64,000 bases of DNA from a virus (Duplodnaviria; Caudoviricetes). The position numbers and the translations under genes are program-made. Positions 7,985 to 63,504 of the stretch are shown here, one piece after another. Every line of letters begins with the position of its first letter. Within the stretch, counting starts at the first letter, position 1. The notes under the pieces were generated by a model. It had not been told where the DNA came from. It saw only the letters and a list, made by a program, of their open reading frames with translations, and made no database searches. The DNA lies in IMG/VR virus record IMGVR_UViG_3300037249_001405, positions 96,001-160,000 of that record, one strand, 5' to 3'.

Positions 7985-8056
7985 TTAAATCCTTAATTAA
8001 GAGAAGATATAAACAGAATAAGTTTATATCTTCTTTTTATTTTTCAAAATATTAAT
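7985..8056 (+). promoter_or_regulatory. Promoter-hairpin-U-box leader cassette, copy 1
   Basis: CTTA-ATTAA-G; stem GAGAAGATATAAAC/GTTTATATCTTCTT; TTTATTTTTCAAAATATTAAT. Confidence 0.75.
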
Positions 8057-8082
8057 AACTTTTAATTTAATCTATATTTATT

Positions 8083-9066
8083 ATGGCATATCTCAACCAT
8101 ATGCTTGCCGTATTCCCGGAGGAAATAGCCAAGCAAAATAAGTCAAGGAACTTTAGTAAGCTTCCCAGACAAATTAGTCTATTCAAAATGGTCAAAGTTA
8201 TGACCAATGGACAGACTGGTAGTTACTCAAAAATGAGTAAATACCAAAGGAACGCTTTTAAATCGTTCCTCACGAGAATGAGAGAAGCATTTGGATCAGA
8301 CGTTAAGTTTGATGGTAAACGCTATTTTCTCTTTTCAAGAGAAATCACAGCTGATGAATGGATTAAAGCCACAAAGGCTGATGTACCATTCTATGGTCGT
8401 GGTTCAAGGAATTATGGAGAGCCAGCTCTTCGTGATTCTATTAATAGAATTCTCGACTATGTAATCGAGAATGACGAGAGTGTAATAACTATTGATCAAC
8501 TCAATCTTATTACACTTGGAACAAACTGTGCTTCACTCATAAATGATCATGGAATGAAGTATGGTAAAGAAAGCTTTCAAACTTTCCAAGTTTTGTTTGA
8601 CAAACTCGGTTTGAAAGCTACTGTAAAAGAAACAAAACCCATTTTTGCAGAATCTCTGGTAGAAGAAATGCCGGAGTATTACAAAAGGGATTGGTCTTCC
8701 TTTACATCGACTCAGTTGATCCTTGAGTACAAGGACATTGAGCAAGTAAAGAAAGCGAAGGAAAACCTCAAAGGAATGAAAATTCTCGGAGGTTATTTTC
8801 GCAAGAAAATTGTAATGTCAGCCGAAGACGGCAAGAACATTACAATTGACGTAACTGCTAAAATGGTAAGGGAGGCTACAGATAAAGCTGAACTTATCTG
8901 TCACGATGTGGATGCAGTTAAGCAGGTTTTGATAGAGAATATGATCTACCAAAATACATTCAAACTTGCTGAACAAGTAAAAGATAAGCTTGAGAAGAAA
9001 ATCAAGCAGTTCGAAAAGCAGCAAGAAGAACTCGAAAAATATATTACAGCCGTTACTAATTCATAA
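8083..9066 (+). CDS. Hypothetical protein with C-terminal coiled coil
   Basis: 327-aa ORF behind leader cassette. Confidence 0.85.
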   Translation: MAYLNHMLAVFPEEIAKQNKSRNFSKLPRQISLFKMVKVMTNGQTGSYSKMSKYQRNAFKSFLTRMREAFGSDVKFDGKRYFLFSREITADEWIKATKADVPFYGRGSRNYGEPALRDSINRILDYVIENDESVITIDQLNLITLGTNCASLINDHGMKYGKESFQTFQVLFDKLGLKATVKETKPIFAESLVEEMPEYYKRDWSSFTSTQLILEYKDIEQVKKAKENLKGMKILGGYFRKKIVMSAEDGKNITIDVTAKMVREATDKAELICHDVDAVKQVLIENMIYQNTFKLAEQVKDKLEKKIKQFEKQQEELEKYITAVTNS

Positions 9067-9083
9067 CGGCTGTAATTCAAAAT

Positions 9084-9130
9084 AAAAAAAAAAAGAAAGA
9101 CGAAATTTTATAATCGTCTTTCTTTTTTTT
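9084..9130. terminator. Bidirectional terminator
   Basis: A-tract, AAGAAAGACGA/TCGTCTTTCTT stem, T-tract; between convergent genes. Confidence 0.75.
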
Positions 9131-9142
9131 ATTCATTATAAA

Positions 9143-9403
9143 CTACTTCTTTTTCTTTTTTGGAATAGGAGTAGTTCTTTTTTGTGTTGTATTAATTCTA
9201 CGAACAATACGTCCTTGTGATAAATCATATGCGGAGATTGATACTTCAACTTTATCACCTACCGTTACATTTATCTTGGCATTAGTCATTCTACCAGATA
9301 CTGTACAGGTGCATTCATGTCCGTTTGCTAATTGAACCTGAAATTTACCGTAACCATGTGTAGCAACAACCTCACCCTCTTTTATTATCTCGGTATTTTT
9401 CAT
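9143..9403 (-). CDS. infA: Translation initiation factor IF-1 homolog
   Basis: EGEV...F.V.L.NGH...SGRM...I.V.GDKV.V.IS.YDLSQGRI matches the IF-1 OB fold; extra Lys-rich C-tail. Confidence 0.9.
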   Translation of the reverse strand: MKNTEIIKEGEVVATHGYGKFQVQLANGHECTCTVSGRMTNAKINVTVGDKVEVSISAYDLSQGRIVRRINTTQKRTTPIPKKKKK

Positions 9404-11217
9404 TTCTGTTCGGATTTTTTCTCCTCAGTTGGTTGATTGTTATCAACATCAATTGAGATTTGTGTCTTATAGAATTTTCTACTGAGAATATTTGCTTTTA
9501 ATGTATCTGAAATATTCTCCTTTCCAAGATAATTCTTAATGTCGTTATAAGTAATTACCATATTTGCTCTAATTATCTTACCAGATGTAGCCTTATCATA
9601 CGGATTCTTAACTATATTGTAGTTTTGAACTCCTATACCATTAAATATAATAGCATTATTTACCATTTCACCAATTACTTTTGCGAGTTCGTCACCGTAA
9701 GTAATATTAGTGTCACTAGGTAATTCAACGCCGTTTTTGAATACATCTTCATCTACTTTTATATTGCAAGTGATAGGTGTATTTGAAATATAAGGTATAT
9801 TAGAGTAATTAACATAACGATCGTAATTCTCCCAGTTAGCAAATATAAAGGATGTTTGATCCTTTACTTCACTCTTAACTTTTGTAAACAAATCATTAAA
9901 GTTAACAATATGTGAATTTAGATAACTTAATGCTGTTTCATAAGAGTTACTATGCTTTAGAAGTCTGCTAATAAATAGAGCAGATTTCTTAATCACAGAA
10001 ATAGACTCTATCGGGAGATCATATGAAATTGATGGATTTAGTAGATCAGGATCGAATAGTATAAATTCCTTCAACCTTTCTTCAAGAACCCTCTTAAGTA
10101 ATTCAGTAATTTCTGGAACTACGTCTTCAGTTGTGGGATTCTTCAGTGAAGATAGGTATAACAAATTCTCAACTACATCTCCATACTGACCGGATTCGCA
10201 GTTTAGAATTGAAGGAACGGATTCCCTATGCTTAAATTCACCAAATCCAAACGCTTTGACTGTATTCTCAGCTAATTTATTTAGGTCAAGGGGATTATTG
10301 TTAATCTCATCTTCACTAAATACTTTATCTACTTCAAAAGCAGGATATACTTCAGTTGTAGGAATCATCTGAATTGAATAATCATTGAGATCATCATATA
10401 CATCGATGAACCTATCATTCAGTGACTTAAAGTCTGGACAGTTATCCTTTATTGTGAAATAAACACTACAAAAATCCGAAGTAATAGAATCGAAAGTTAC
10501 ATAAGGGTTATTGGTATTGTTTAAAATATCAACAACTGATTTTACGAAACTACATTCATTATTTGGTTTCTTTGTAGCCTTTTCTGCATCTAAACCTTCT
10601 TTAAGAAGTTTATCAGCATCCTCACCTATATCATATTTACCTATAATAGTAAACTGATTACCAAGTGAATCAACGTATTTATGACCCAGCTTCCAACTCT
10701 TTGTTCTCTTGGAACCAAAAGCTGCGGCTGTAGAAAATATCATATACTTACTTCCGTTTTTTAGAGCGGATTTGTATACATCGCCAAGATCTCTATTCAA
10801 GAAAAATGGGACTCCTATGCATTTTTGATTAAATGCTATACAAACCCCACTATAACTATCATCGGATTGTCTCGTAGATAATCTAGACAATTCCGATAAA
10901 CAATTATAAAAATATGTAGATGATCTTGTATCAATAAAATCAAATATACACTCTAACCAAGCTCCTTTACCAATATTGCTTGATGAAATTAAGTATTTAT
11001 CGCCATCAATTTTAAACTTAATGTTAAAATTTGCTATTGTCTTTGTACTCGTCGAGGAAAGACAATTTTTTACACCATTACCTTTCAGATTATCACAATA
11101 GGCTTTAGTTACCTTTGGAATATCCCAATCTGGCGTAATTACAACTTTATTATCAGGTCCTATATATACTACAAGACTCTGTGGTACAAACAAATCGTTC
11201 TTTAATTCGTTAATCAT
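9400..11217 (-). CDS. Hypothetical protein (605 aa)
   Basis: Long ORF with 4-bp overlaps to both neighbours; WKLGHKY motif. Confidence 0.85.
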   Translation of the reverse strand: MINELKNDLFVPQSLVVYIGPDNKVVITPDWDIPKVTKAYCDNLKGNGVKNCLSSTSTKTIANFNIKFKIDGDKYLISSSNIGKGAWLECIFDFIDTRSSTYFYNCLSELSRLSTRQSDDSYSGVCIAFNQKCIGVPFFLNRDLGDVYKSALKNGSKYMIFSTAAAFGSKRTKSWKLGHKYVDSLGNQFTIIGKYDIGEDADKLLKEGLDAEKATKKPNNECSFVKSVVDILNNTNNPYVTFDSITSDFCSVYFTIKDNCPDFKSLNDRFIDVYDDLNDYSIQMIPTTEVYPAFEVDKVFSEDEINNNPLDLNKLAENTVKAFGFGEFKHRESVPSILNCESGQYGDVVENLLYLSSLKNPTTEDVVPEITELLKRVLEERLKEFILFDPDLLNPSISYDLPIESISVIKKSALFISRLLKHSNSYETALSYLNSHIVNFNDLFTKVKSEVKDQTSFIFANWENYDRYVNYSNIPYISNTPITCNIKVDEDVFKNGVELPSDTNITYGDELAKVIGEMVNNAIIFNGIGVQNYNIVKNPYDKATSGKIIRANMVITYNDIKNYLGKENISDTLKANILSRKFYKTQISIDVDNNQPTEEKKSEQK

Positions 11218-11768
11218 AACTTTTTATTTAGTTCGTTTGTTATTTTTATTTTGCTTTTTACTGAGTTAAATTTAAATTTGGTACATCCCTTTAATACCTC
11301 TATAGCCAAAGTTCGTCCTCTTTCTAAGGATACTTTTAAATCATTTACTACTTCTGGAAATCGATTTTTTATTTCATCAACCCCAAGATTCATTGTATTG
11401 TCCTTTTGGAGAATCTTATCTACCTCAGAATCAATATCTTCCTCCTCTATGAGAGTTACGAGGGCTTGGTCATACTTTCTTTGTTTTACGTTAGGATTTA
11501 ATAATCCCCTACAAATAAACAAATGACCATTACTTATTTTAACCGCCTCACTCAATTGGGGAATTTCCAGACATTCCCTATTAAATCGAATTTCTACAAA
11601 TTCTTCTAAAGAATTACATACTTCTTTATCTACTATATTAGAAGTGCGGGTAGCCGAGACAAAACCCTGTTCATAATCAGGTAGTGTTGTATTTACTCGG
11701 CTAGCCGCAGCTTTCAATGCCGCAACTAATTCGCTGCTTAGCTTACTTGGATCCTTTCGTCTTCCCAT
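11214..11768 (-). CDS. Hypothetical protein
   Basis: 184-aa ORF in a tightly packed operon. Confidence 0.8.
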   Translation of the reverse strand: MGRRKDPSKLSSELVAALKAAASRVNTTLPDYEQGFVSATRTSNIVDKEVCNSLEEFVEIRFNRECLEIPQLSEAVKISNGHLFICRGLLNPNVKQRKYDQALVTLIEEEDIDSEVDKILQKDNTMNLGVDEIKNRFPEVVNDLKVSLERGRTLAIEVLKGCTKFKFNSVKSKIKITNELNKKL

Positions 11769-11770
11769 AT

Positions 11771-12448
11771 TTACAAAGTTTCTATTACAGGGTTTAGTCC
11801 TAATATGTTTTTAATAAACACTACTTTATTTACAATAACATTCATGTCGTATGGTGTTATTGTAAATTCTTTCAACAGAATTCTGTTATTATCTTTAACA
11901 GTGAAGTCAATCTTTTGGTCAGAGTATAGACTATTTTCTATTACATAATCACCGTCTCCTATTGAAGGATTATTTATATATAACATATTATAGGAATAGT
12001 CTAATTTGCCTGAAATAAGAACTCTAGATTTATGAGAAACATTATGAATGAATTTGGTTGCAGTAGGTTTCTTAAATACCCTCCAATTACCAAGATATAG
12101 TTGTTTATCACTATTCTCTACTAATTGTTGCCTAATATCATTCTCCTGGTCTTTAAATCTATTTTCAAGATAAAATCCATTAATTAAATCGATTTTATCC
12201 GTTGATCGAGAACCATACCTACTGTATTCTCTTGTATTTTTAAAAAGAGATACTGGGATATTCTCATTATTTATTTCTAGCATTAAATAATTAATGCCAT
12301 TTGAAAGATCTCGTATAGATACTGAACCGGTTGGAACAGTTGATTTAATCACTGCAAATTCAGTGTTTAGTAAAACCACACTACGATCCTTCAAAGAATC
12401 TTTAATCTCTTTACGATATATATCGAATGTTATTGGAAATATTTTCAT
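11771..12448 (-). CDS. Hypothetical protein
   Basis: 225-aa ORF in operon. Confidence 0.8.
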   Translation of the reverse strand: MKIFPITFDIYRKEIKDSLKDRSVVLLNTEFAVIKSTVPTGSVSIRDLSNGINYLMLEINNENIPVSLFKNTREYSRYGSRSTDKIDLINGFYLENRFKDQENDIRQQLVENSDKQLYLGNWRVFKKPTATKFIHNVSHKSRVLISGKLDYSYNMLYINNPSIGDGDYVIENSLYSDQKIDFTVKDNNRILLKEFTITPYDMNVIVNKVVFIKNILGLNPVIETL

Positions 12449-12451
12449 TTG

Positions 12452-14176
12452 TTATTCACAAGTGCAATAGTTAATATAAACAGGATTAGAATAAATTAGT
12501 CTATCAATCCAATCATTACCCATAGCTTTTTGACAGCAATCAAGTACTGTACAAATAAAGTTATGTTCATCATCCTCTAATGAATTTTTATATTTGTTCA
12601 TTAGTGGAAGTAATTCGGAGAATTTGAACCAGTAATACTGAATACCATTTACTTCAACTTTTTCAAAGTACTTAGTATTAGTTACATCAGCTAATTTGGC
12701 TAATTCTGGAAATTTTCCACCAAAAACAGTACCCAAATCAGTTAAATAAGTATCTAATGCTCCTTGAATTCCGGATGAAATTTCTGGATCATCTACTTTA
12801 CCTGAATCAATATCCTCTAAAGTTATATTTCTCATACTATAAGCGCGAGCTTCATCTTTTAGGGAAAGAATGATACTCTTCATTAAATCCTTTCTCTTCT
12901 GTTCGTCGTCACTTACAGCCGTAATTCTATTAACAAGAATATATCTTCCGTCAAAACTGTTGATAGAACTTGTCTTTACAGAACAAGAGAAGTATACTTT
13001 ACTGCCGTCGAATCTAACACCGAAATTATAAGATCTATCTTTACAATCAATGTTTTTGTATCGAGTCTCTATTACAGGACAGTTCAATGTATAATCGAAT
13101 ACTGTTACTGGACTATTAACCCAACCTTCTACATCTAACTGATAATCAAATATTGTTAATCCAGTATCTTTATCTATAGTTTTTATAAATTCTGAATCAA
13201 CTGATCTTGTCATATTAAATGAGTTTTCAGCTACGTCAGAGAATAAAGAAACCTCAGAAGAGAGTTGAGCCCTAATCAATTTAGCATCACTAGGAGATGT
13301 TTTACCCATATAATCTTTTATTAACATGTCACAGGTTAGTGTTACATTCTCATCAGCAACTTTATCTAACACTATACCATGTTTAACAAGACTATCGTAA
13401 ACCTCACGATTACTACCTTCTGATACTGGGTAAATTTCTGAATACTGTCCTAAAATGAAATCTGCTAACGTTTCATCATTTTCTAGTACATTCTTTTCCA
13501 TGTAATCAGAATTACTTGCAGATACTGAATCAACTACAATAAAATCATCCGTATCTAATCTACGTTCCTTTATCATAGTTTCATAATAACTATCACCATC
13601 TCCTGGATCTATTAAACCTGCATTAACTAGCGTTTTAAATATTACATCAGGGTCAATTGTATTAATAGATAGAAAAGTATCAACTACTCTATCAAAAGTA
13701 AATACAACATCATCAAGACGAAAATATCTCAATAACAATAATCTAAGAGGCTTAACAGATTCTACATAATACTTAATCAATAATCTCTTGGATTCCTCTA
13801 ATTCCTTTTTGTTATGAAATTTGAAGATTCTTGCAAGATATATTGAATTACTGTATGGATTTACGTCGTAAATCAAAAGAGATAATGCATAATTAATTTT
13901 CTCAATGATTGTATAATGATCACTGGAAAAGTAAAATCCTCTCTTACTATCATAATCATCCTCATTAGCATTATTAACATAGAGTACATTATTTATTACT
14001 CTACATTCAAGCTGTGGATAATCATGGATATCTAATTTATCCGGTAGTTTCCTTTGAGAAAGAATGCATACGTGGTCAGAAGAAGAATTACCATGTCTGG
14101 TTCTCCATCTAACCTTCATACCCGGTATATACTCAATACCAAGCTCCTTTAAGTAATTTTTAATAATATTTATCAT
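12452..14176 (-). CDS. Hypothetical protein (574 aa)
   Basis: Long ORF; promoter-like CTTA-CAAAT-G upstream (~14204-14224). Confidence 0.85.
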   Translation of the reverse strand: MINIIKNYLKELGIEYIPGMKVRWRTRHGNSSSDHVCILSQRKLPDKLDIHDYPQLECRVINNVLYVNNANEDDYDSKRGFYFSSDHYTIIEKINYALSLLIYDVNPYSNSIYLARIFKFHNKKELEESKRLLIKYYVESVKPLRLLLLRYFRLDDVVFTFDRVVDTFLSINTIDPDVIFKTLVNAGLIDPGDGDSYYETMIKERRLDTDDFIVVDSVSASNSDYMEKNVLENDETLADFILGQYSEIYPVSEGSNREVYDSLVKHGIVLDKVADENVTLTCDMLIKDYMGKTSPSDAKLIRAQLSSEVSLFSDVAENSFNMTRSVDSEFIKTIDKDTGLTIFDYQLDVEGWVNSPVTVFDYTLNCPVIETRYKNIDCKDRSYNFGVRFDGSKVYFSCSVKTSSINSFDGRYILVNRITAVSDDEQKRKDLMKSIILSLKDEARAYSMRNITLEDIDSGKVDDPEISSGIQGALDTYLTDLGTVFGGKFPELAKLADVTNTKYFEKVEVNGIQYYWFKFSELLPLMNKYKNSLEDDEHNFICTVLDCCQKAMGNDWIDRLIYSNPVYINYCTCE

Positions 14177-16276: not shown

Positions 16277-16280
16277 AATT

Positions 16281-17176: not shown

Positions 17177-17189
17177 ATTACAAGCTAAA

Positions 17190-17231: not shown

Positions 17232-17242
17232 ATTCTTCTTTC

Positions 17243-19540: not shown

Positions 19541-19555
19541 AATATTTATGTAATA

Positions 19556-19972: not shown

Positions 19973-20085
19973 TTTTTATACTTTTTATTCTTTTATTAGA
20001 TTTTTAAGGGTTATTCTTCTAATTTATTAAATTTCGATAAAACCGTTAAATACTTATTATTGAAAATTTAATTAATAAAAATAAA

Positions 20086-22590: not shown

Positions 22591-22609
22591 AATGTATAGT
22601 TTTTTAAGT

Positions 22610-22690
22610 GTTAATAAATTGTGAAAAATAAAAAGAAGGGAATATAAACAGTTAAGTTTATATTCCCTTCAGTATTAAGGGTTTAAAGGG
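22610..22690 (-). promoter_or_regulatory. Leader cassette, copy 2
   Basis: CTTA-ATACT-G; GAAGGGAATATAAAC/GTTTATATTCCCTTC; TTTTTATTTTTCACAATTTATTAAC. Confidence 0.75.
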
Positions 22691-23752: not shown

Positions 23753-23771
23753 TTTTTGTAGTTTTATAATT

Positions 23772-23849
23772 AATTAATATCTAGAAAAATAAAATGAAGA
23801 GAATATAATAAATTATTTATATTCTCTCCTATATTTAGGATTTTAAGGG
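23772..23849 (-). promoter_or_regulatory. Leader cassette, copy 3
   Basis: CTAA-ATATA-G; GGAGAGAATATAA/TTATATTCTCTTC; TTTTATTTTTCTAGATATTAAT. Confidence 0.75.
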
Positions 23850-29938: not shown

Positions 29939-29957
29939 AATAATTTTTCTTGTTATT

Positions 29958-30036
29958 ATTAATATCATGAAAAATAAAAAATGAGTAATAATGCTTTTAT
30001 ACATTATTACTCATCTCAATTTCTAGGTTTTTAGAC
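29958..30036 (-). promoter_or_regulatory. Leader cassette, copy 4
   Basis: CTAG-AAATT-G; ATGAGTAATAATG/CATTATTACTCAT; TTTTTATTTTTCATGATATTAAT. Confidence 0.75.
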
Positions 30037-33316: not shown

Positions 33317-33317
33317 G

Positions 33318-33382
33318 CTCAAATCCTTGATATTGAGAGAGTAATAATGTATAAAAGCATTGTTACTCTCTATATTTTCTTT
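33318..33382 (+). promoter_or_regulatory. Leader cassette, copy 5 (U-box degenerate)
   Basis: CTTG-ATATT-G; GAGAGTAATAATG-TATAAAAG-CATTGTTACTCTC, nearly identical to copy 4. Confidence 0.65.
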
Positions 33383-33437
33383 GCTAACAAAACACAATTA
33401 ATTAACAATTTTTAATTTTTTAAAAAACTATAAAAAA

Positions 33438-35961: not shown

Positions 35962-35981
35962 AATATATTTTTTATATTATT

Positions 35982-36054
35982 GTTAATGATTTGAAAAATA
36001 AAAAAGAAGATAGCAAAGCACGCTTATCTTCTTCAATAATAAGGGTTTAAAGGA
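35982..36054 (-). promoter_or_regulatory. Leader cassette, copy 6
   Basis: CTTA-TTATT-G; AAGAAGATA(A)GC/GCTATCTTCTT; TTTTATTTTTCAAATCATTAAC. Confidence 0.7.
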
Positions 36055-41859: not shown

Positions 41860-41863
41860 CAAG

Positions 41864-41944
41864 CTAAAAACCTTAATATTGAAGAAAATATAGATGCTAA
41901 AAAATCTATATTTTCTTCATTTATTTTTCTAGATATTAATTAAC
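41864..41944 (+). promoter_or_regulatory. Leader cassette, copy 7
   Basis: CTTA-ATATT-G; GAAGAAAATATAGA/TCTATATTTTCTTC; TTTATTTTTCTAGATATTAAT. Confidence 0.8.
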
Positions 41945-41964
41945 TTTAACTAAAATTGATTATT

Positions 41965-46978: not shown

Positions 46979-47057
46979 ACGAAGTTGATTAGTTGAATTT
47001 ATTGATAGGTAAGACAATGCGCTCTTACCTATCTTTTATTTTTAATAAAATTAATAA

Positions 47058-51718: not shown

Positions 51719-51801
51719 AAAATATGATAACCAAGTAACTAAAATTACTTGGTTATCTTTTTATACCCATTAAATCCTAATAACTGAAATAAATTAACTA
51801 A

Positions 51802-53814
<2,013 letters not shown>

Positions 53815-53835
53815 TCGCTTGAGACTCTTATATAT

Positions 53836-53900
53836 GAAGAAATATTCAGAGCCAATTTTGGCCGCCCATGAACCGCAGTGATGCGCCGGGCGGCTTTTAT
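53836..53900 (+). terminator. GC-rich hairpin + T-run (ligA terminator and/or small RNA)
   Basis: GCCGCCC/GGGCGGC enclosing CGCA-GTGA-TGCG; preceded by CTTA-TATAT-G. Confidence 0.55.
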
Positions 53901-53914
53901 TTTTTTTTTTCTTT

Positions 53915-53990
53915 CCTTCAAACCCTTATTTATGAAGAAAGTATAAATGTAATTATATTTTCTTCAATTTATTTTTCAAGATATTAATTA
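53915..53990 (+). promoter_or_regulatory. Leader cassette, copy 8
   Basis: CTTA-TTTAT-G; GAAGAAAGTATAA/TTATATTTTCTTC; TTTATTTTTCAAGATATTAAT. Confidence 0.8.
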
Positions 53991-54008
53991 AGTAAAAAAC
54001 TATTTATT

Positions 54009-54611: not shown

Positions 54612-54623
54612 ACTGACATAAGA

Positions 54624-55016
54624 ATGAAAAGTTTAAAAAAGTACAACCGAAAAAACCCTTGGCTTGAGGTAGGTCAGGGTGAATACACGGTATTCAGAAA
54701 TTACGTAAAATTTGCGGAAAATGATGCCGATGATTTTTATGGATATTCAGTAAATCCATTTTACTGTTATATTCTGCCTTTAACAAAATTTAAGACTCCT
54801 TACTGGAATACAACACATTTTTGTATTTCTAGTGTAGATGATTGGGGTATTCATGCCACATTCAATTACGCTATGACCAGAGAGGAAGCTACGAAACTTT
54901 GTAGGGAGTTCATTAGAAGTTTCAAAAGAACCTCTAGAAGTTTCGGTGGTCTTACACAAGACCACTTTGAAGAATTCTTCAGAGAAAAAGGAGCTGATGA
55001 GATATCCCGAGGGTAG
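54624..55016 (+). CDS. Hypothetical protein
   Basis: 130-aa ORF. Confidence 0.75.
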   Translation: MKSLKKYNRKNPWLEVGQGEYTVFRNYVKFAENDADDFYGYSVNPFYCYILPLTKFKTPYWNTTHFCISSVDDWGIHATFNYAMTREEATKLCREFIRSFKRTSRSFGGLTQDHFEEFFREKGADEISRG

Positions 55017-55035
55017 TCTCATCAGTCATTAAGAT

Positions 55036-55250
55036 AAAACCTCACGTAATCGGTTGAAAGTCCTATATGGATACCCCGGTTCGAACCCGATGAAAACTTG
55101 CACGTAACCCCAGGCGTGTATTGTAAGTAGTTCCGAGTCCCTGAAAAAAGGAGGGCTGCGTCGTGTGAAAAGGACAGTCAGTGAGAAACTCTCACTGGTG
55201 CGGCGTGGCTAGAGATAGTTGGTAAATTCGGGCTGATCTATGTGAGTTTT
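55036..55250 (+). ncRNA. raiA-motif-like structured RNA (~215 nt)
   Basis: Closing helices CTCACGTA/TATGTGAG and ATCGGTT/GGCTGAT; GGTTGAAAGTC, AAAAC, CACGTAA, AGTCC, GAAAC occur in the order recalled for the raiA motif. Confidence 0.6.
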
Positions 55251-55338
55251 TTAAGAAAAAAAAAATAAAGACATTTAATCTAAAATTAATTAGGTTATTT
55301 GTCTTTATTTTTTTTTTTATTTTTCTGGTCTATTTTTA

Positions 55339-57057
55339 TTAGAGAAAACTTCTGTCTTTAGACCAGAATATATTTATTGATGGGGTGGTGTTAATATCCA
55401 CCTTATCACAATCCAAATTATAAATCCAGAAGTCTCCGTTAACTAAGTTGATTAATGGAGAATTCTCAGATTTATCGAGAACCACCCGAGAAAGCGGAAT
55501 AGAAAGTTGAGGTTCTCTATCTACGCTGATTTTTTCAGCGGGGTAGATATAGAAAGCTCCGGTAGGAATGGTAAGATCTTTTACATCATCCTTATGAAGG
55601 ATGGTCGGTACAATCCGATCCATCAGAGCTTTTTTCTGCTCTTCGGCTTCTTTATGATTGTAAAAAGCCTCCTCACGGCAATAATCAGCGCTACCAATTC
55701 TTTGGGAGACTCTTGAGATTACATCACTTACAAGAAGGTTATAAACTACCTCGTAAGTGATATAAACTTTATCAGTAAACATTGTTTCCAAGGTTTTTCT
55801 GATATTTACGTCAGAAGATTTCTCAACGTAACTATCCTTCAAAGCAAGGATAGGTTTATCTACATGGAGCTTCTTACCAATAATAGACTTCATGTAGGTA
55901 GTGAGATAGTATGGCTTAAGGTAGCTGTAGCCACCGTCATCACACAACTCATTTAAATCACTGACGGTGATCTTATCTTGTCCGCCAAGTAATTTAATTA
56001 ATCTTTTAGCTTTTTCAGGCATGTTGTAGTCTTCAAAAGCTTTCTCAATGATTTCATAGTATTTTTCCAGATAGTTTATTTCAGTACCGTCCGGCATTGT
56101 TGTTACCATAGAATCATCAATAAACTTAGGTTTATCCTCGTATTCACCAGTGTCCTTGTAAACGGAAGAACTGATAAACCAGAAATAAACTGTAATATTC
56201 TTGAGCGTAGTGTTATTTTTTACCACGAAATAGTGGTAATCAACATCGCTACTATTCTCATCTTCGTCTTCGTTAATGACACCTGCTCTTATAACAAGCA
56301 TATTGCCATTAGCAAATTTGATATTATACACCTCTCTCGAGAGGTTATCGTACTTTGTTATAAAAGAAGGTATTCCCATCATCTCAGGAGAACCATTCTC
56401 GTCTTTGCCAGTTGAAAGAACTAACTCATCAACGAATTTAACAAGTTCACCAGTTTTCATGTTAATACCTACTTTTATATCATAAGAATCATCCTCGTAA
56501 CAATGATCATCATAGTCGCAGAGATAACATTCAGGTTCTTCTATACCGAAGAAATTGTAACGAAGCGTTTTGCTGCTTGTTTCAAAATTATCCTCCGTTA
56601 CAGATTTTATGATATAGTAATCATCTGTCTTAAAGTTACAGATAAGCTTAGGACACCCATTTTCAGTGTTGCTAAGGTCTATAACTGTAAGACTGTTATC
56701 ATCCCTGAGGATATAAAATTCGTTCCACCTGAATGGATCAAAGTTAATATCCTGTATAGTTCTGAAAAATTCGGTTACCGAATTCTCGCTTACTTTGTAA
56801 TTTACATCACAAAGATAATTTATCGATTCAAATAAGAGATGCTCTTTCAAATATCCCTCATTTGTTTGGGAATCGAATCCTTTTTCGATTCTTTTGATAA
56901 TACATTTCAAAATTTTCTGAAACGTATTAACAAAGCTTTTATTGTTCCTCTTTGAAGGAAATTCAACGGAACAATAAAATTCAATGAGATCTGCTTTCTG
57001 CAAATCAACATTAAGACCCTCCTCAACAGGCTTGGGTCTTTTCAAAAGAAATTCCAT
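55339..57057 (-). CDS. Hypothetical protein (572 aa)
   Basis: Long ORF behind leader cassette. Confidence 0.85.
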   Translation of the reverse strand: MEFLLKRPKPVEEGLNVDLQKADLIEFYCSVEFPSKRNNKSFVNTFQKILKCIIKRIEKGFDSQTNEGYLKEHLLFESINYLCDVNYKVSENSVTEFFRTIQDINFDPFRWNEFYILRDDNSLTVIDLSNTENGCPKLICNFKTDDYYIIKSVTEDNFETSSKTLRYNFFGIEEPECYLCDYDDHCYEDDSYDIKVGINMKTGELVKFVDELVLSTGKDENGSPEMMGIPSFITKYDNLSREVYNIKFANGNMLVIRAGVINEDEDENSSDVDYHYFVVKNNTTLKNITVYFWFISSSVYKDTGEYEDKPKFIDDSMVTTMPDGTEINYLEKYYEIIEKAFEDYNMPEKAKRLIKLLGGQDKITVSDLNELCDDGGYSYLKPYYLTTYMKSIIGKKLHVDKPILALKDSYVEKSSDVNIRKTLETMFTDKVYITYEVVYNLLVSDVISRVSQRIGSADYCREEAFYNHKEAEEQKKALMDRIVPTILHKDDVKDLTIPTGAFYIYPAEKISVDREPQLSIPLSRVVLDKSENSPLINLVNGDFWIYNLDCDKVDINTTPSINIFWSKDRSFL

Positions 57058-57076
57058 AATAAAGTAGTTTTTATGT

Positions 57077-57158
57077 GTTAATAAATCGTGAAAAATAAAA
57101 AGAAGAAAATATAGACTCTTTACATCTATATTTTCTTCATATATAAGAGTTTAAAGGA
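57077..57158 (-). promoter_or_regulatory. Leader cassette, copy 9
   Basis: CTTA-TATAT-G; same stem as copy 7 with a different loop; TTTTTATTTTTCACGATTTATTAAC. Confidence 0.8.
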
Positions 57159-57167
57159 ATTAGAATA

Positions 57168-58706
57168 TTAATTGTTTTTCTCCATTCCCTCTTTATCCTT
57201 CCAATTAATGGCAGGATAATATCTTTCTATTTCATTTACTGTATTACCAAAGATCACATCTTCTATCTCGAGTGTATCTTTGTATGCCATAGGTGACTCA
57301 TCGATGGTCTTTTTTGTTACTGATGTAGTCACAATACCCTCCATCTCTTTCTCGAATGAAGACATGGAGAACTTAAGAATTTCATTAATCTCGTCATCTG
57401 AGAGATTACCAAAATCCTTTTCATACTTAGCCAATATGGTTAAGTTCTCATCGGAGAAGTCCAAATCAGATTCGTACTCCTCCTTTAATTTGAGGTATTC
57501 TTGGAGTTGTTCTGCCAACTCCAACCTCCTGTCGGCTTCCTTTCTGGACATGATACGTCCGGCACCATGTGGCGCCGAATTACCCCATTCAGGATTACCT
57601 AGACCTTCAGCTATTACAACACCATCCTTCATTGAGAACGGGATAATAACTATTTCGCCCTGTCTTGCTCTGATAGAAGACTTCCTCAATGTTCTATCCT
57701 CAAGATCAACGAAATTATGTGTAGTAAATATAGTATCAACAACGCGGACACTATACTTACTTAAAATATCCGTTATGATCTTTTGAACAGTTATGTGATT
57801 GTACCTTGCATAAAGCTGTGCAAAGCACATATCCTGGAGATAACCTTTCATATTATCTCCCTTCAGATAACCATTCATGAATCCTTCTTCAAGCTTCTCG
57901 AACTCTGCCGAGAGATACTTGTTTAATTCATCCTTAAAGAACTTCATGTCCTTTCCTTCGGCCTTATATTTAGCCTTGAAAGAATCAGTAAGTTCCTTTT
58001 CTTTCTCTTTCCTTTCTTTCTTAGAAAGAGGGTTATTTGAAATGTTCTTCCAGTAAGTAGCTACAGCAAGACCAAATCTTCTTGATCCAAAGTGAAGGAA
58101 GAAAGCAGCTTTCTTCTTATCCTTTGTCAAATCATACTCCAGAAAGTGGTTTCCGCCACCTACTGTTCCGAGTGATTTCCAAAAGACACCTGGATCAAAG
58201 TTATTAATACGTTTAAGAAACGCATTAATCCAGTCTTCCGATACACGTACAGGAAGATCACCTAACATTTCAGGCCAAAGTTGCCTGTATTTGTTAAATT
58301 CCTTTGTTATGAATTTACAAAATTCATCAGTTTTCACCTTTGAATTTTCATGAAGGTGAAATCCCATAGGTACCTGTTGAGATACCTTATGTTCAAACTC
58401 GATAAGCTTGTCTTCAGAGACAGGTTTATCGAGAATCATACCAGATACAGTACAACCTATATCTACTCCGATGTGGAGTGGGTTAATATAGTTGCCAATA
58501 GTTGCAGAAAGGCCACAAGGACCTGCTGCACCTACGTGAGCATCTGCCATAAGATAAACCGATTGGCCCTCAAAGGCTTTCGAGTTTATGATGTCGTCAA
58601 CCTGTTCCAGCACACCTGGGTCATAGGTCCTTATATACGCTTTACAAGTAGCGTATTTTCCCTTTTTTACGAGAGGGAGGGGACCATCGTAATATAAATT
58701 TGCCAT
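57168..58706 (-). CDS. rtcB: RtcB RNA ligase
   Basis: DAHVG, GVDIGC, LGTVGGGNHF, HFGSR, HNF, SAPHGAGR, DESPMAYK. Confidence 0.93.
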   Translation of the reverse strand: MANLYYDGPLPLVKKGKYATCKAYIRTYDPGVLEQVDDIINSKAFEGQSVYLMADAHVGAAGPCGLSATIGNYINPLHIGVDIGCTVSGMILDKPVSEDKLIEFEHKVSQQVPMGFHLHENSKVKTDEFCKFITKEFNKYRQLWPEMLGDLPVRVSEDWINAFLKRINNFDPGVFWKSLGTVGGGNHFLEYDLTKDKKKAAFFLHFGSRRFGLAVATYWKNISNNPLSKKERKEKEKELTDSFKAKYKAEGKDMKFFKDELNKYLSAEFEKLEEGFMNGYLKGDNMKGYLQDMCFAQLYARYNHITVQKIITDILSKYSVRVVDTIFTTHNFVDLEDRTLRKSSIRARQGEIVIIPFSMKDGVVIAEGLGNPEWGNSAPHGAGRIMSRKEADRRLELAEQLQEYLKLKEEYESDLDFSDENLTILAKYEKDFGNLSDDEINEILKFSMSSFEKEMEGIVTTSVTKKTIDESPMAYKDTLEIEDVIFGNTVNEIERYYPAINWKDKEGMEKNN

Positions 58707-58708
58707 TA

Positions 58709-59152
58709 TTATATGGATGAATTAATAAACTCAACAATTTCGTCATAAGAATTGTTTTGCCAAAACTTCCTGACGTTCTCAAACGAAATATTCATCTTAT
58801 TACCATATTCATCGTAATAAGTCATTTCAATTTTGACAACCGAAGGACATGGTTCATAATCAGTCTGATAAGTACGAATTATGAAACCAGCTTCATCAAG
58901 GATATCGATAATATCATCAATATCTTCGTTTTCGTCCACATGACAGCCGAACTTAGGCTCGTCACCGTTATATGGGGTTGTAATATAAGCTAATACGTAA
59001 ATTAGCTTATCATTACCAAAGAATTCCTCAGGATTGATTTCGAATTCTTTTGTGATATAATCTGCATCACCCTGATCCCAAGTGTTTTTGACCAAGATGA
59101 CATTTTTGCGTTCCTTGTTAGCTGAAGGAACCAGTAGAATGTGTTTATCCAT
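58709..59152 (-). CDS. Hypothetical protein, paralog family with 28611 and 61242
   Basis: WDQGDAD...EEFF.NDKLIYVLAYITTP...SVV. Confidence 0.8.
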   Translation of the reverse strand: MDKHILLVPSANKERKNVILVKNTWDQGDADYITKEFEINPEEFFGNDKLIYVLAYITTPYNGDEPKFGCHVDENEDIDDIIDILDEAGFIIRTYQTDYEPCPSVVKIEMTYYDEYGNKMNISFENVRKFWQNNSYDEIVEFINSSI

Positions 59153-59173
59153 AATAAATATTTTATTTAAAAA

Positions 59174-59227
59174 ATTAATATCTAGAAAAATAAAAAGAGA
59201 GTATAAAGCGGGATGCTTTATACTCTC
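59174..59227 (-). promoter_or_regulatory. Leader cassette, copy 10 (hairpin + U-box, no promoter of its own)
   Basis: GAGAGTATAAAGC/GCTTTATACTCTC; TTTTTATTTTTCTAGATATTAAT. Confidence 0.7.
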
Positions 59228-59275
59228 GAGAAACAGAAAACAAAAATCAACCCAATAAATAAATTATGTCTTGAG

Positions 59276-59352
59276 TAATAATGGTTTAGAAAAATAAAAG
59301 ATAATATAAACTTTTTATCGTTTATATTATCTTCATGTATTAGGTTTTAATT
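59276..59352 (-). promoter_or_regulatory. Leader cassette, copy 11
   Basis: CTAA-TACAT-G; AAGATAATATAAAC/GTTTATATTATCTT; TTATTTTTCTAAACCATTATT. Confidence 0.7.
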
Positions 59353-60174
59353 GCTTTTCTTCCGTAAATTTTCTTGAATCTTTTTCCACACTTCAGGGCT
59401 ACATCCGGTATTTAAATTCGGAGGATCATAATCAATAAAAGAGTTATAAGTATCCTGTCCGAGTTTTGCCTCATCATGATAATGTTCAAGCATAGATGCT
59501 TTCTTACCATTAACTGTATATTTTTTCTTAGTAAGCTCTTCTGTCGGTATTCCTGATTTTAACCAAGCATTCATAACTTGACTCCTATTACCAGATTTTT
59601 CATATTGAAGTAAGTAATTAGAATAATCTAAAATCTCATTAGGGTTTCTTAAATTAACAGCATCACCTTGTTTTAATTGATCTTCAAACTTCTTTCCATT
59701 AAAGTGCTTTCTAAAATCAACTAAATCTTTTTCATTTCGAGCTTCTAGGTGATCATATGCATGACCGGCTTCATGAGCAGCATCTGATCCAGAAACTTTA
59801 GGTAAGAGTATACCCTTAACTTTTCGTTTTGCTCCATCTAGGTATGACAATGTGATAGGAGCTGATACTTTTGGTGATGCAACCGTAGTTATTCCATCCT
59901 TACGAAGAGACTTTATAACTCCATGCCCAATATCTCTATCTTCTAGTATAGCATCTAAATCACCGTTCTCCTTACCAATTAAATAATCATTATATCTATT
60001 AACGGAGCTCAATGATCTGTTGTCTTGCTTTCTCCTAAGATCTCTATAAAAATCAGCCTTCTCATTCTTTATAAGTTTTCTGAAAATAAGATTTAATTCC
60101 TGATTTTTTTTCAATTTCCTTACACGATCGGCATGAGAAGCTATTCCATATAAATTTGTTCTATATATAATCAT
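59347..60174 (-). CDS. HExxH-containing basic protein (start MIIYRTNLYG), possible virion protein
   Basis: AAHEAGHAYDH; ATG 60174 preferred to the track's upstream start. Confidence 0.65.
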   Translation of the reverse strand: MIIYRTNLYGIASHADRVRKLKKNQELNLIFRKLIKNEKADFYRDLRRKQDNRSLSSVNRYNDYLIGKENGDLDAILEDRDIGHGVIKSLRKDGITTVASPKVSAPITLSYLDGAKRKVKGILLPKVSGSDAAHEAGHAYDHLEARNEKDLVDFRKHFNGKKFEDQLKQGDAVNLRNPNEILDYSNYLLQYEKSGNRSQVMNAWLKSGIPTEELTKKKYTVNGKKASMLEHYHDEAKLGQDTYNSFIDYDPPNLNTGCSPEVWKKIQENLRKKSN

Positions 60175-60275
60175 AATAAATAATCTTCTTTTACATATAA
60201 GATAAAAGGAGAAAAAAGAAAGAAACACATATATCTAATTTTTTGTATTTTAGATATATGTGTTTTATATTTTGA

Positions 60276-61235
60276 CTACTCTTCCTCTTCGTCATCCTCA
60301 GAACGAGGATCTACGTCAAGGGGATTGAAGTAGTATTGGTTACAGTAAGGGCAATAAATGCTCTCTCCGTTTTTCATAAGGTAAGTCTGGCTACCACACT
60401 GTGGACACTTACACTTATCCTCTGTAGTAAGAGTGGTTAAATCCTCCGGCATAGGGGCCAAAGGTTCATTGTACTCTTCCTCACCAAATCGGTTATTAGG
60501 ATCAAAAGCCTTGAACCGACTGATTGTAATAGCATCTCTACAATCCTCCTTTTTCTCTTCAACGAGGGTTCGAAGTTCTTCATCTTCAGGAAGAAGATCC
60601 ATCGGGATTGTTATAAATGCTTCTTTAATATTTTGATATGCACCCATACCAATAGTGAATGACTTCATAAAGCCCGATTCACGATCGAGGTAAGTTACAT
60701 TCAAATTTTTCCTTGGCAAATCATTAGAAGATATCTGATTTGAGATAGTTGCAATAAGGATCAACTTATCCAAATCACCTACTTCAATAATTTTGCCAGT
60801 CCTCCAATCCTCTACCTTAGCCTTAGTAAATACCTTAATAGGTACATCTGCTCCAGTAAGATAAAGAGCTCCTGTGTGAATTTCGTTCCTTTCTTCCTCT
60901 TCTTCCGTATCAGGATGGAAAATATGAGAAAGATAGGTTACATTATGGAACTTATCTCCATAGACTTGTTTAATCTCTTCGATCAACTCCTCTATTTCTT
61001 TAAGTTCATCGGGATTGGTTTTAGCGTAACCTAAAACCAAAGCATCACCGTCCTTAAAAGCTTCCGGAAGCTCGTCTTTGAGAGTGATGTTTTTCTTCTT
61101 AAACTCATCTACTTTGTTTAAGATTGCGGCGACTTCTTCGTCGTACTCAAGACTCTGATTGAATCTTGGGTCTTTTTCACAAATGAGGTCAATGTACTTA
61201 ACCCCATCTCGAGTGTTTACCTCTGTCCTGTACAT
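60276..61235 (-). CDS. Acidic protein with C-terminal Zn ribbon
   Basis: CPQCG-x10-YCPYC. Confidence 0.8.
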   Translation of the reverse strand: MYRTEVNTRDGVKYIDLICEKDPRFNQSLEYDEEVAAILNKVDEFKKKNITLKDELPEAFKDGDALVLGYAKTNPDELKEIEELIEEIKQVYGDKFHNVTYLSHIFHPDTEEEEERNEIHTGALYLTGADVPIKVFTKAKVEDWRTGKIIEVGDLDKLILIATISNQISSNDLPRKNLNVTYLDRESGFMKSFTIGMGAYQNIKEAFITIPMDLLPEDEELRTLVEEKKEDCRDAITISRFKAFDPNNRFGEEEYNEPLAPMPEDLTTLTTEDKCKCPQCGSQTYLMKNGESIYCPYCNQYYFNPLDVDPRSEDDEEEE

Positions 61236-61241
61236 AAAAAA

Positions 61242-61757
61242 CTAGTTTTTTGTAAATTTATTATATTTTTCCAGAAACTCCGGAAAATTTTCTTCAAATT
61301 CAATTTGATTAATGAAATCTGTGATTTCATCACGGGTTTTATCTTTCCAAATAATTTCAATTATCTGGTCAAATGAAACCAACCACTTCTTGCCTTTTTC
61401 GTCAAAATAAACTATTTTTAATTCATTGACAGAATGGCAAATGGAGGAACAATTGCCTTTATAGCTGTATGTATGAAGGTTATGGTAACATAGAAAAGGA
61501 GTAATATATTTAATATCCTCTTTTTCTATAATATCCCTATTGAGATATTTTTGGATATAAGCTAATACGTAAATTAGCTTATCATCCTCAAAGAATGTTC
61601 TTGCATCCTTCTTAATTGGGTAAGAATTGTAACATTTGGCATAATTATCGAACATGTCATTCCAAATGATTGTAATTTCAACAAGGTTCTTTGGCTTGTC
61701 GTCTTGAGGGATTTCTTTGATAAGAAGACCCCTGTTATATTCATATTTTGTAATCAT
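61242..61757 (-). CDS. Hypothetical protein, paralog family with 28611 and 58709
   Basis: FFEDDKLIYVLAYI...HSVNELKIVYFDE.G. Confidence 0.8.
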   Translation of the reverse strand: MITKYEYNRGLLIKEIPQDDKPKNLVEITIIWNDMFDNYAKCYNSYPIKKDARTFFEDDKLIYVLAYIQKYLNRDIIEKEDIKYITPFLCYHNLHTYSYKGNCSSICHSVNELKIVYFDEKGKKWLVSFDQIIEIIWKDKTRDEITDFINQIEFEENFPEFLEKYNKFTKN

Positions 61758-61777
61758 AAATATAATAAGTAGTTTTT

Positions 61778-61855
61778 ATTAATTAATATCTAGAAAAATA
61801 AAAAGAAGAAGATATAAACTAATTTATATCTTCTTCTTCATTAAGAGTTACAGGG
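61778..61855 (-). promoter_or_regulatory. Leader cassette, copy 12
   Basis: CTTA-ATGAA-G; GAAGAAGATATAAA/TTTATATCTTCTTC; TTTTTATTTTTCTAGATATTAAT. Confidence 0.8.
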
Positions 61856-61859
61856 ATTG

Positions 61860-62522
61860 TTACATGTACTCTGATTCAGTTCTACGATACCTTCTTAGAC
61901 GGTAGTTTGATGCAACGAGCTCTTCAAATGAAGATTCCTTGTACTCAATGTACACAGAATTAGGACCATGTTGCTCTTTCCATTCCAAGATTCTAAGTTG
62001 TTGTTCATCCCACTTCTTTTTTCTCTCCAACCATTCTGGAGTGAAATTACCGTCTTCTGGGAATTCAGGCATTTCAAGAAGAGGTTCACCATTAGGTGCA
62101 TACTCAATCTTCTTTTCTGGCTCTTCATTTACAGGTTCCGGCTCTACTACCTTCTGTGAACGTTGCTTAGCTTCCTGCTTCTGAATTCTTTTCTCCTGTT
62201 CAATTCGTTTCTGATAAGAGGCCTCTGTTGAATCAACGGTTACCTCATTAGCAATCTGTGGTGCACTCTTATCTCCTCTAAGGAGGAGGTAGACTAGAAG
62301 ACCACCGAGAGCCACTATCAAGAAGATAAGAACCCAAAGTCCTTTCATCTTCTTTGTCTTCCTATGTCCTTCTCCTGTAGCTCCACCAATTGGACCATAG
62401 GTATCAGAATAGCTCCTTTCTTTCGAGACAGATTTGTCACTTACTCTGTGGCTACCTGTGCCGTTGTAATCAATCACCGCCTTCTTATTGGCGGCATTTG
62501 CTCTTGATCTTGCTCCTGCCAT
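61860..62522 (-). CDS. Single-pass membrane protein
   Basis: TM GLWVLIFLIVALGGLLVYLLL; charged C-terminal domain. Confidence 0.8.
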   Translation of the reverse strand: MAGARSRANAANKKAVIDYNGTGSHRVSDKSVSKERSYSDTYGPIGGATGEGHRKTKKMKGLWVLIFLIVALGGLLVYLLLRGDKSAPQIANEVTVDSTEASYQKRIEQEKRIQKQEAKQRSQKVVEPEPVNEEPEKKIEYAPNGEPLLEMPEFPEDGNFTPEWLERKKKWDEQQLRILEWKEQHGPNSVYIEYKESSFEELVASNYRLRRYRRTESEYM

Positions 62523-62566
62523 TTTTCTTTGTTTTTTTTTAATTAATAGTTATTATGTTTATTTAT

Positions 62567-63403
62567 TTATTCAGCAACGACAACACCAGAATCACTTCCA
62601 ATGAAATCATCACCAATTGGTTTATTTTCTATTGTAAAACCAGCTCTTATATCCAAATCTTTCAAATCAGACTCAGACATACCAAGGAGATTCATAATGA
62701 ATGAATTTAGAGTTTTCTTATCTAACTCAATATGATCACGATTATGAATACCACTTTCAAACTTAATAATAAGGGTTATTTCATATTTCCCCTCTTTTCG
62801 AGATCCATTATTACCACGAAGCAATACACCAATCTCATCTTTTGAATCTAAGATTAGACCGTTGTTATCACTGTTAACGTTAATATCGTACCTCAAAATA
62901 CTTGACTGTAAAATTTTTTCTCTTACACAAGTATTCAATAGCGTATTAAAGTATTTCGGGATAATATACTTTAACATAGCCTCCACTTCTCTTTCATCAT
63001 CAACCCATTTATCTGTTTCAATAAAATTTGGAGTTGACTCAGAATAGTTGTAGCGTAAAGCTTTAACCTTAATAGCTTCTGTCATTATTTTAATGACATC
63101 TGGGTCATTCATATATGTATTAGTGAAATAAATTGGATTACTCAACAAATACATAAGAAAATCTATATTCGAAGAATCAGCTAACTCGACATAAGAGGTA
63201 ATTTGAGGATATATTCTTCTATAATCTTCCTCATTTTCTCCTTTTGTTGTAGATTTAAATGAGTAAGATTCAACAAATATTGATTGATAATTATCGGAGT
63301 TGACTTTACTCAAAACAGATTTCATAATAGACTCAGAAACATTTTCTAATTCTATTTCCACGGATCTTGTAATCCGTAATGTAGGAATTGTTCCTTCTTC
63401 CAT
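62567..63403 (-). CDS. Hypothetical protein
   Basis: 278-aa ORF behind leader cassette. Confidence 0.8.
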   Translation of the reverse strand: MEEGTIPTLRITRSVEIELENVSESIMKSVLSKVNSDNYQSIFVESYSFKSTTKGENEEDYRRIYPQITSYVELADSSNIDFLMYLLSNPIYFTNTYMNDPDVIKIMTEAIKVKALRYNYSESTPNFIETDKWVDDEREVEAMLKYIIPKYFNTLLNTCVREKILQSSILRYDINVNSDNNGLILDSKDEIGVLLRGNNGSRKEGKYEITLIIKFESGIHNRDHIELDKKTLNSFIMNLLGMSESDLKDLDIRAGFTIENKPIGDDFIGSDSGVVVAE

Positions 63404-63418
63404 TTTTTTTCATATTTA

Positions 63419-63504
63419 GTTAATATCGTGAAAAATAAAAAGAGAAAGTGAGTGTATGAATATAGAAACGTACACTCACTTTCTCAGTGATTAGATTTTG
63501 AGAC
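63419..63504 (-). promoter_or_regulatory. Leader cassette, copy 13
   Basis: CTAA-TCACT-G; GAGAAAGTGAGTGTA/TACACTCACTTTCTC; TTTTTATTTTTCACGATATTAAC. Confidence 0.8.

Follow-up and report, generated by a model that had tools for sequence, protein, structure and literature searches.

In lambdoid late control (pR'-tR'-Q), and likewise in the N/nut, HK022 put and Xp10 p7 systems, a promoter is followed by a close intrinsic terminator, and read-through is enabled by the phage. Promoters of the T7 group are followed by structured 5' leaders, among them the gene 10 leader and promoter-adjacent RNase III sites. Promoter-early stem-loop (PeSL) cassettes were described in T4-type phages (Arbiol 2010, PMC2839356; Comeau 2014, PMC4122927). 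In the jumbo phage 201phi2-1 (and phiKZ), ONT-cappable-seq located termination sites directly downstream of start sites; in 201phi2-1, short RNAs derived from 5' untranslated regions and terminators right behind capsid-gene promoters were found, and antitermination was suspected (PMC11512511). Here, a repeated intergenic cassette of about 95 bases is described from a 64,000-nt stretch of Caudoviricetes DNA (the window), which comprises positions 96001-160000 of the 210,316-bp IMG/VR virus contig IMGVR_UViG_3300037249_001405. The cassette consists of a promoter-like motif (P1), a hairpin, a near-invariant tail, TTTATTTTTC, and, up to an ATG of the same strand, an AU-rich leader.

The cassette was compared with these systems. 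Like PeSL, it is a short repeated intergenic module that combines a strong (here putative) phage promoter, a terminator-type stem-loop, a conserved leader and a start codon. Both are concentrated before small variable genes of unknown function, lie at insertion, deletion or replacement boundaries between related phages, and have a lineage-specific consensus. The comparison with PeSL had already been drawn in a preliminary description of this DNA; it holds for the parts and the genomic behaviour but not for their order, since the PeSL stem-loop is located upstream of the promoter (PMC4122927) and stops incoming transcription only, whereas here P1 precedes the stem, which starts from the 3' edge of the motif. 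PeSL promoters are sigma70-like and accompanied by a Shine-Dalgarno sequence, neither of which is present here, and PeSL stems are made of a G-run and a C-run, in contrast to the long, AU-rich stems of the cassette; PeSL copies recombine with each other to give mini-circles. The cassette works like PeSL in evolution and is outside the PeSL family. With 201phi2-1 it shares the giant-phage background and the promoter-proximal position of the (here predicted) termination sites, but those are single, dissimilar cases found by experiment in an unrelated lineage, whereas one module of about 95 nt, known from sequence alone, occurs about 27 times here. The lambdoid and other antitermination systems are similar in having a terminator close behind the promoter, so that a short RNA would be made until a read-through function acts; they differ in comprising one or few sites, with loading sites upstream of the terminator, whereas the cassette has about 27 sites and its only conserved box is downstream. 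The shape of P1 resembles promoters of the T7 group, in that a contiguous conserved motif of about 23 nt closes with a purine-rich putative start and a hairpin follows at once, but T7 leader hairpins have no terminator U-tract behind them. With G as position +1, P1 would carry AACyCT at -13 to -8, presumably as in the T3 promoter; this is regarded as a lead and not as a result.

The contig was estimated by CheckV to represent 56% of the genome and has a GC content of about 33%. No match to deposited phages was obtained at the nucleotide level. Two scans of IMG/VR with cassette patterns gave only chance matches in AT-rich contigs, and protein-based IMG/VR searches retrieved distant relatives only: L043 and L044 were without P1, and G001/L045, in which a 944-aa SbcCD-like protein is 45% identical, has a handful of P1 sites and one cassette. 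A metagenome scan detected complete cassettes in at least 14 contigs (among the matches listed, L080, L096, L104, L105, L107, L113, L116, L144, L146, L162, L164, L167, L182 and L187), and RtcB-bearing contigs were found at 87-95% identity. The relatives are short metagenome contigs. A total of 42 cassettes, 26 from this contig and 16 from relatives, were aligned with plain MAFFT, fitted to no structure (alignment A1). A covariance model (CM) with a structure written by hand was built on A1 and searched over the whole contig. From the raw MAFFT alignment RNAalifold obtained a weak consensus, with the arms out of register, and the hand-written structure was tested with controls instead.

The scan with a covariance model, as proposed in the preliminary description, recovered 26 full copies in the contig (E 1e-10 to 0.03) plus one promoter-less copy, and 16 more copies are present in relatives; 12 full copies and the promoter-less copy are situated in the window. 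The pattern TTTATTTTTCNNGAT, allowing at most one mismatch, was found 11 times in the window against 0.97 expected, and none of 100 shuffles reached 11. All cassettes are oriented with the downstream gene. The 13 elements first reported were all confirmed at their sites and strands (those on the minus strand had been given by the lower coordinate), including the copy without a promoter of its own (59174). The architecture that they were said to share is repeated in the 13 copies, but the tail is degenerate and the box absent in the copy at 33317, and at 59352 the box is degenerate and is followed by no open reading frame (ORF). The copies of the window are as follows, with CM scores, energies of the fold (kcal/mol) and z scores against dinucleotide shuffles.

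7983..8074, plus strand: cassette with P1, a 16-bp hairpin, TTTTTATTTTTC and leader, before ORF 8083-9066 (327 aa, no family match); CM 59.2 bits, E 5e-7; fold -15.7, z -5.6; orthologous cassettes in L096 and L162.
22592..22688, minus strand: cassette before ORF 21523-22590 (nucleotidyltransferase-like, PHROG); CM 76.2 bits, E 5e-10; fold -22, z -7.3.
23755..23847, minus strand: cassette before ORF 23150-23752; CM 60 bits; z -3.8; separate upstream terminator (-9.3) with T-run.
29940..30035, minus strand: cassette with a different stem (GAGTAATAATG type), before the ORF starting at 29938; CM 55.8 bits; fold -19.4, z -6.5.
33317..33424, plus strand: variant cassette with P1, a 15-bp hairpin containing two G·U pairs, degenerate tail TATATTTTCTTTGC and no box, before ORF 33438-33866; CM 41.6 bits, E 7e-4; fold -20.2, z -6.4.
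35964..36052, minus strand: cassette before ORF 35245-35961; CM 64.6 bits; own upstream terminator (-14.2); identical hairpin in L146.
41863..41958, plus strand: cassette before ORF 41965-43155 (396 aa); CM 74.2 bits; fold -19.1, z -6.2.
53916..54006, plus strand: cassette before ORFs 54009-54611 and 54624-55016; CM 67.5 bits; GC-rich terminator upstream (-19.5); block inverted in L105.
57059..57156, minus strand: cassette before ORF 55339-57057 (572 aa); CM 73.6 bits; cassette and gene absent from L105 and L113.
59161..59228, minus strand: promoter-less copy with hairpin, TTTTTATTTTTC and box, before ORF 58709-59152 and RtcB (57168-58706, assigned via PF01139 homologs); matches CM positions 19-89 only, E 0.0014; fold -19.4, z -7.0.
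59259..59352, minus strand: cassette with degenerate box and no ORF behind; CM 48.8 bits; stem sequence same as in L105:3714.
61764..61854, minus strand: cassette before ORFs 61242-61757 and 60276-61235; CM 69 bits; fold -18.6, z -4.7.
63401..63503, minus strand: cassette with a unique, GC-richer 16-bp stem, before ORF 62567-63403; CM 60.1 bits; fold -22.5, z -6.8.

The promoter had been given as CTWR-N5-G. A conserved upstream motif is indeed present, but this formula is too narrow, and the real motif, P1, comprises 23 nt with the consensus CTTnAAAcyCTTAnnnnTGAAGA. A weight matrix of P1 gave about 50 good matches over the whole contig, nearly all of them intergenic and facing the next gene; they are rare in the half of the contig that carries structural genes. 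About half of the matches sit in cassettes, and the other approximately 25 are bare, with no hairpin and an ATG 13-41 nt downstream. In agreement with the earlier claim that the ligase and tRNA units have the promoter alone, bare P1 sites were found upstream of the NAD-dependent DNA ligase gene and, at a distance of 37 nt, of a tRNA-Pro/tRNA-Met unit; another precedes the gene of a ClpB-like ATPase. The site of the ligase gene is:

51768..51790, plus strand: bare P1, no hairpin, 26 nt before the NAD-dependent DNA ligase gene (by Pfam); weight-matrix score 13.7 bits; terminator upstream.

P1 is read as a promoter because bare copies precede many start codons at this spacing, plus one tRNA unit; on these grounds it behaves as the putative promoter of one gene class and is not sigma70-like in appearance. 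Promoters of the sigma70 type were not enriched (80 found, 88.8 expected). The possibility that P1 and the ATTAAy box form two halves of one promoter was ruled out, as their spacing varies from 2 to 23 nt in the bare sites and ATTAAy precedes most genes, operon-internal ones included. Two further arrangements of P1 were observed. At 20008 (minus strand) and 20044 (plus strand), back-to-back bare P1 sites lie within 36 nt between divergent small genes and form a compact bidirectional promoter region. At 53818..53915 (plus strand), between the ligase gene and the next cassette, about 70 nt without an ORF lie behind a strong P1 (20.3 bits) and close with a GC-rich hairpin and a long T-run (fold -21.2); this P1-plus-terminator stretch is a candidate small RNA unit driven by P1, and it is absent at the same place in the relative L105.

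The stems of the 42 cassettes are AU-rich, of 10-19 bp and -6 to -23 kcal/mol, and the 13 hairpins of the window range from -12.9 to -22.5 kcal/mol (z -3.3 to -7.4). For most copies the first base of the stem is the G of TGAAGA, and no stem begins more than 4 nt away from that G. The preliminary description had stated that pairing is kept while stem sequences differ, and this was borne out by covariation on A1: over 15 specified pairs, 87.5% of the cells are paired against 78.2% in shuffles, 68 cells against 24.6 are changed on both sides, and 35 extra pair types against 24.7 are present, values reached in none of 500 shuffles. When the 3' partner was slid by 1-3 columns, pairing fell to 40-57%. 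Paralogs may exchange sequence, so that their covariation counts for less than that among independent orthologs; orthologous cassettes have perfect stems despite flanking coding DNA that is only 66-73% identical. Folded singly, the copies contain 576 Watson-Crick pairs, 45 G·U pairs and 5 single A·C mismatches. Since a G·U pair on the sense strand is A·C on the other strand, the large excess of G·U over A·C indicates that selection acts on the sense RNA, which points to the hairpin as a structure selected at that level. A DNA cruciform or an antisense RNA is unlikely for the same reason, and the reverse strand is without a T-run. No alternative, antiterminator-type pairing was present in the folds of the 13 window copies.

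Hairpin and U-tract lie between P1 and the ATG in all copies. They were compared with a reference set of 54 non-cassette hairpins with T-run located behind stop codons throughout the contig, the tail of which reads TTTT, A (in 29 of 54) and TTT, at -8 to -29 kcal/mol. The cassette tail, TTTTATTTTTC or TTTT(T)ATTTTTC, has the same consensus, and the cassette hairpins fall in the same energy range; together they have the form of an intrinsic-terminator signal. The tail begins 0-2 nt past the stem in 38 of 42 copies. Three cassette hairpins of the window are flagged by a terminator scan, and, conversely, one ordinary terminator between convergent genes that shares the tail TTTTATTTTTC scores with the cassette CM. 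Many of the 54 ordinary terminators have, in addition, an A-run 5' of the stem and are bidirectional terminators by sequence; their TTTT-A-TTT tail is unusual.

The hairpin is not only the terminator of the upstream gene. Five cassettes follow divergent neighbours (contig positions 7088, 56532, 184420, 188716 and 200070) and at least five have a separate hairpin with T-run just upstream of P1 (23847, 36052 and 53916 of the window; 56532 and 174478 of the contig), with their stems intact: nine such copies retain the outer five stem pairs in 41 of 42 cells, against 68 of 80 in the remaining copies. Because the hairpin is kept where no upstream transcription needs to be stopped, it would concern the transcript of P1 itself, and the data fit such a role. 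A plain hairpin with T-tract begins only 16-36 nt upstream of the ATG in at least 10 further genes; P1 is missing there and the space is too short for another promoter, so that these genes must be transcribed through the element, which suggests that terminator-like signals are leaky or overridden in this phage. Two of them are in the window:

1335-1413, plus strand: hairpin and T-tract close to the ATG, with promoter-less spacing, before gene 1399-3225.
46992-47073, plus strand: the same arrangement before gene 47058-48101.

Leaders are AU-rich throughout and lack a Shine-Dalgarno sequence. The box described downstream of the hairpin is specific to the cassette in one part, TTTATTTTTC-nnG-AT, and only in this part; its ATTAAy portion, like the A-rich run before the ATG, occurs at most gene starts of the phage as a general feature of start regions, and bare P1 leaders also have T-runs followed by ATTAAy. 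In this genome, many copies have in common C-w-n-G-A-T-(w)TTAA after the tail, and in one set of relatives many share C-(G/A)-A-G-T-A-(w)TTAAC. These lineage-wide variants indicate concerted evolution or, possibly, co-evolution with a binding factor. The box had been put forward as the site of an antitermination factor, which is unlikely at the RNA level: it follows the U-tract, so that the polymerase reaches it after the terminator and hence too late for it to serve as an RNA site for overriding that terminator.

Nearly all genes driven by cassettes, and likewise most genes behind bare P1, are without a Pfam or PHROG match. The first genes behind cassettes had a median best identity of 32%, against 59% for the remaining genes at these loci (one-sided Mann-Whitney p = 0.006; numbers are small). 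The separation of accessory units with cassette from core units without it is not clear-cut: cassette genes are mostly ORFans and less conserved, but most bare-P1 genes are ORFans too. The topoisomerase unit had been counted among those without a cassette, and this also needs qualification, since the cassette at 41863 heads the unit that adjoins, upstream, the topoisomerase-IV-A-like gene 43705-45057 (Pfam).

Breakpoints were compared with those of relatives, as the preliminary description had suggested, and an inversion, the insertion of cassette plus gene, and swaps of small ORFs were found at cassettes, at few loci. The order in L105, by protein-level synteny, is ligase, cassette, homologs of the window genes 61860 and 60276, cassette and RtcB, and homologs of 54624, 54009 and 58709 come next, on the opposite strand. 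Between window 51700-63500 and L105, the RtcB-to-61860 block and the 54009-55016 block are inverted as a whole with respect to the ligase gene; a cassette is located at the left joint in both genomes, and the right joint is outside L105. The cassette with the 572-aa gene (55339-57156) is lacking in L105 and L113. In both of these relatives the ortholog of the 59352 cassette directly precedes RtcB, and in the window a unit composed of a promoter-less hairpin, tail, leader and 147-aa gene is inserted between them. The first small ORF behind the cassette at contig position 7088 has 74 aa here, is replaced by an unrelated one of 82 aa in L167, and is absent in L080 and L116. Orthologous cassettes resemble the paralogs of their own genome more than each other.

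Two further groups of genes were noted in the window. Five large ORFs at 1399-14176 (608, 774, 676, 605 and 574 aa) have no Pfam or PHROG match and are 36-90% identical in L096 and L162. The ORF at 48884-51718 (plus strand, 944 aa) encodes an N-terminal calcineurin-like phosphoesterase (residues 1-215) and an SMC/Rad50-type ATPase head (from residue 316); by this domain content it looks like SbcD and SbcC in one chain.

These results are read, tentatively, as a promoter-proximal intrinsic terminator that would act as attenuator and insulator and require read-through, within a portable recombination module; we hold this to be quite possible, though somewhat short of probable. Transcription from the phage-specific P1 would start at the G of TGAAGA, at or beside which the AU-rich hairpin of 10-19 bp begins, followed by the standard U-tract TTTTTATTTTTC and the AU-rich leader. 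Hairpin and U-tract would stop transcription that arrives from upstream (insulation) and also a large share of the transcripts of P1 itself, at about +45 to +50 (attenuation), and the downstream gene would then be expressed by read-through only. This read-through may be a fixed leak that sets a lower expression, or a phage factor of later infection may render the polymerase terminator-resistant, in which case the cassette genes would form a delayed class among the P1-driven genes. The near-identical repeats of about 95 bp at about 27 places would provide homology for the insertion, deletion and inversion of the genes behind them. A more far-reaching version, doubtful in our view, is that the built-in +1 terminator divides a single promoter class into two kinetic classes: about 27 promoters would fire from the start of infection and yield only triphosphorylated hairpin RNAs of 45-50 nt, until a phage factor releases the fast-evolving accessory genes genome-wide. 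These short RNAs might, in addition, be functional themselves, for instance as decoys.

Several observations weigh against attenuation. The TA-N4-TG core of P1 fits the geometry of the Bacteroidota -7 box (PMC7366714), in which case transcription would start 3-7 nt into the 5' arm and the transcripts of P1 would be spared. The stems are rich in A and U, termination alone would not need so strictly conserved a tail, and gene conversion between copies could keep the stems intact without a local function. In the 210 kb available (56% of the genome), no antiterminator gene, no homologs of RNA polymerase, sigma factor, NusG or CAT_RBD, no DFDGD motif and no phiKZ-type polymerase were found; a search for a T7-like polymerase (PF00940) gave no match in G000 or G001, but its control matched nowhere either, so that this result is uninformative.

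The hairpin could instead be a 5'-terminal stabiliser and translation leader, which shields the mRNA from 5'-end-dependent decay while the U-rich tract serves as a single-stranded landing site for the ribosome (protein S1) in a host without Shine-Dalgarno pairing, termination being minor. Stem-loops at the 5' end are known to stabilise bacterial mRNAs and that of T7 gene 10. If transcription starts at the G of TGAAGA, the position of the stem, at that G or within 4 nt of it, suits this function, as do a stem base kept whatever the upstream context and AU-rich leaders without Shine-Dalgarno sequence; the T-runs and ATTAAy of bare P1 leaders imply that the U-rich leader may predate the hairpin. 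A stabiliser, however, does not need a U-tract that abuts the stem, nor a TTTT-A-TTT tail as in the real terminators of the phage, and a stem of 13-17 bp followed directly by 9-11 U-rich bases is the canonical signal of intrinsic termination. This explanation is considered rather unlikely. Less likely still is an overlapping terminator and promoter that spares its own transcripts. With a holoenzyme of the sigma70 family, TA at -12/-11 and a start 3-7 nt inside the 5' arm, incoming transcripts would form the full stem and stop, while P1 transcripts, devoid of the GAAGA base, would have a weak stem and an unpaired gap before the U-tract and run on. The spacing of TA-N4-TG is like that of the Bacteroidota TAnnTTTG -7 box (PMC7366714), 18 of 26 cassettes have a co-directional upstream gene and no other terminator, and the strict register and the conserved GAAGA would be explained. 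But the 9 copies in which upstream termination is not needed retain their outer five pairs (41/42), at least 5 copies would have a terminator on both sides of P1, and in 30035, 33317 and L045 the Watson-Crick core begins at P1 positions 20-23, so that a start at about 24 still leaves a near-full terminator.

A third explanation sees chiefly a mobile or recombinogenic module, which travels along with gene cassettes and is kept uniform by gene conversion, as was proposed for PeSL, and whose hairpin is maybe the DNA target of a recombination protein. It draws on the closeness of orthologs to paralogs of their own genome and the lineage-wide box variants, the inversion by which L105 differs from the window between the ligase and RtcB blocks, the 572-aa gene and its cassette that are missing from L105 and L113, the changing small ORF behind the cassette at contig position 7088, the promoter-less copy that travels with the 147-aa gene, and the PeSL precedent (PMC2839356, PMC4122927). 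The ratio of G·U to A·C, 9 to 1, is nevertheless that expected of a sense RNA and not of a cruciform in duplex DNA; every copy is oriented with its gene, and divergent stems stay paired through compensatory changes. Recombination explains the spread of the module but not the order of promoter and hairpin, and as the chief function it is deemed very improbable.

The interest of the cassette derives chiefly from how stereotyped the module is. If it proved to be a stabiliser or insulator only, it would be an ordinary leader, though an unusually stereotyped one. If the hairpin does terminate the transcripts of P1 itself, distributed premature termination would be the main means by which this phage times or doses its accessory genes, and an uncultured jumbo phage of Bacteroidota type would possess a simple regulon readable from sequence. 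The cassette allows transcription units, and probable joints of gene shuffling, to be recognised directly in metagenome contigs. With it, the concept of mobile regulatory cassettes known from PeSL reaches an unrelated phage group, in which the internal order differs, and the cassette offers compact promoter and terminator parts for hosts without sigma70-type promoters. For the phage, the cassette probably throttles or delays fast-changing genes and gives a recombination handle for swapping them.

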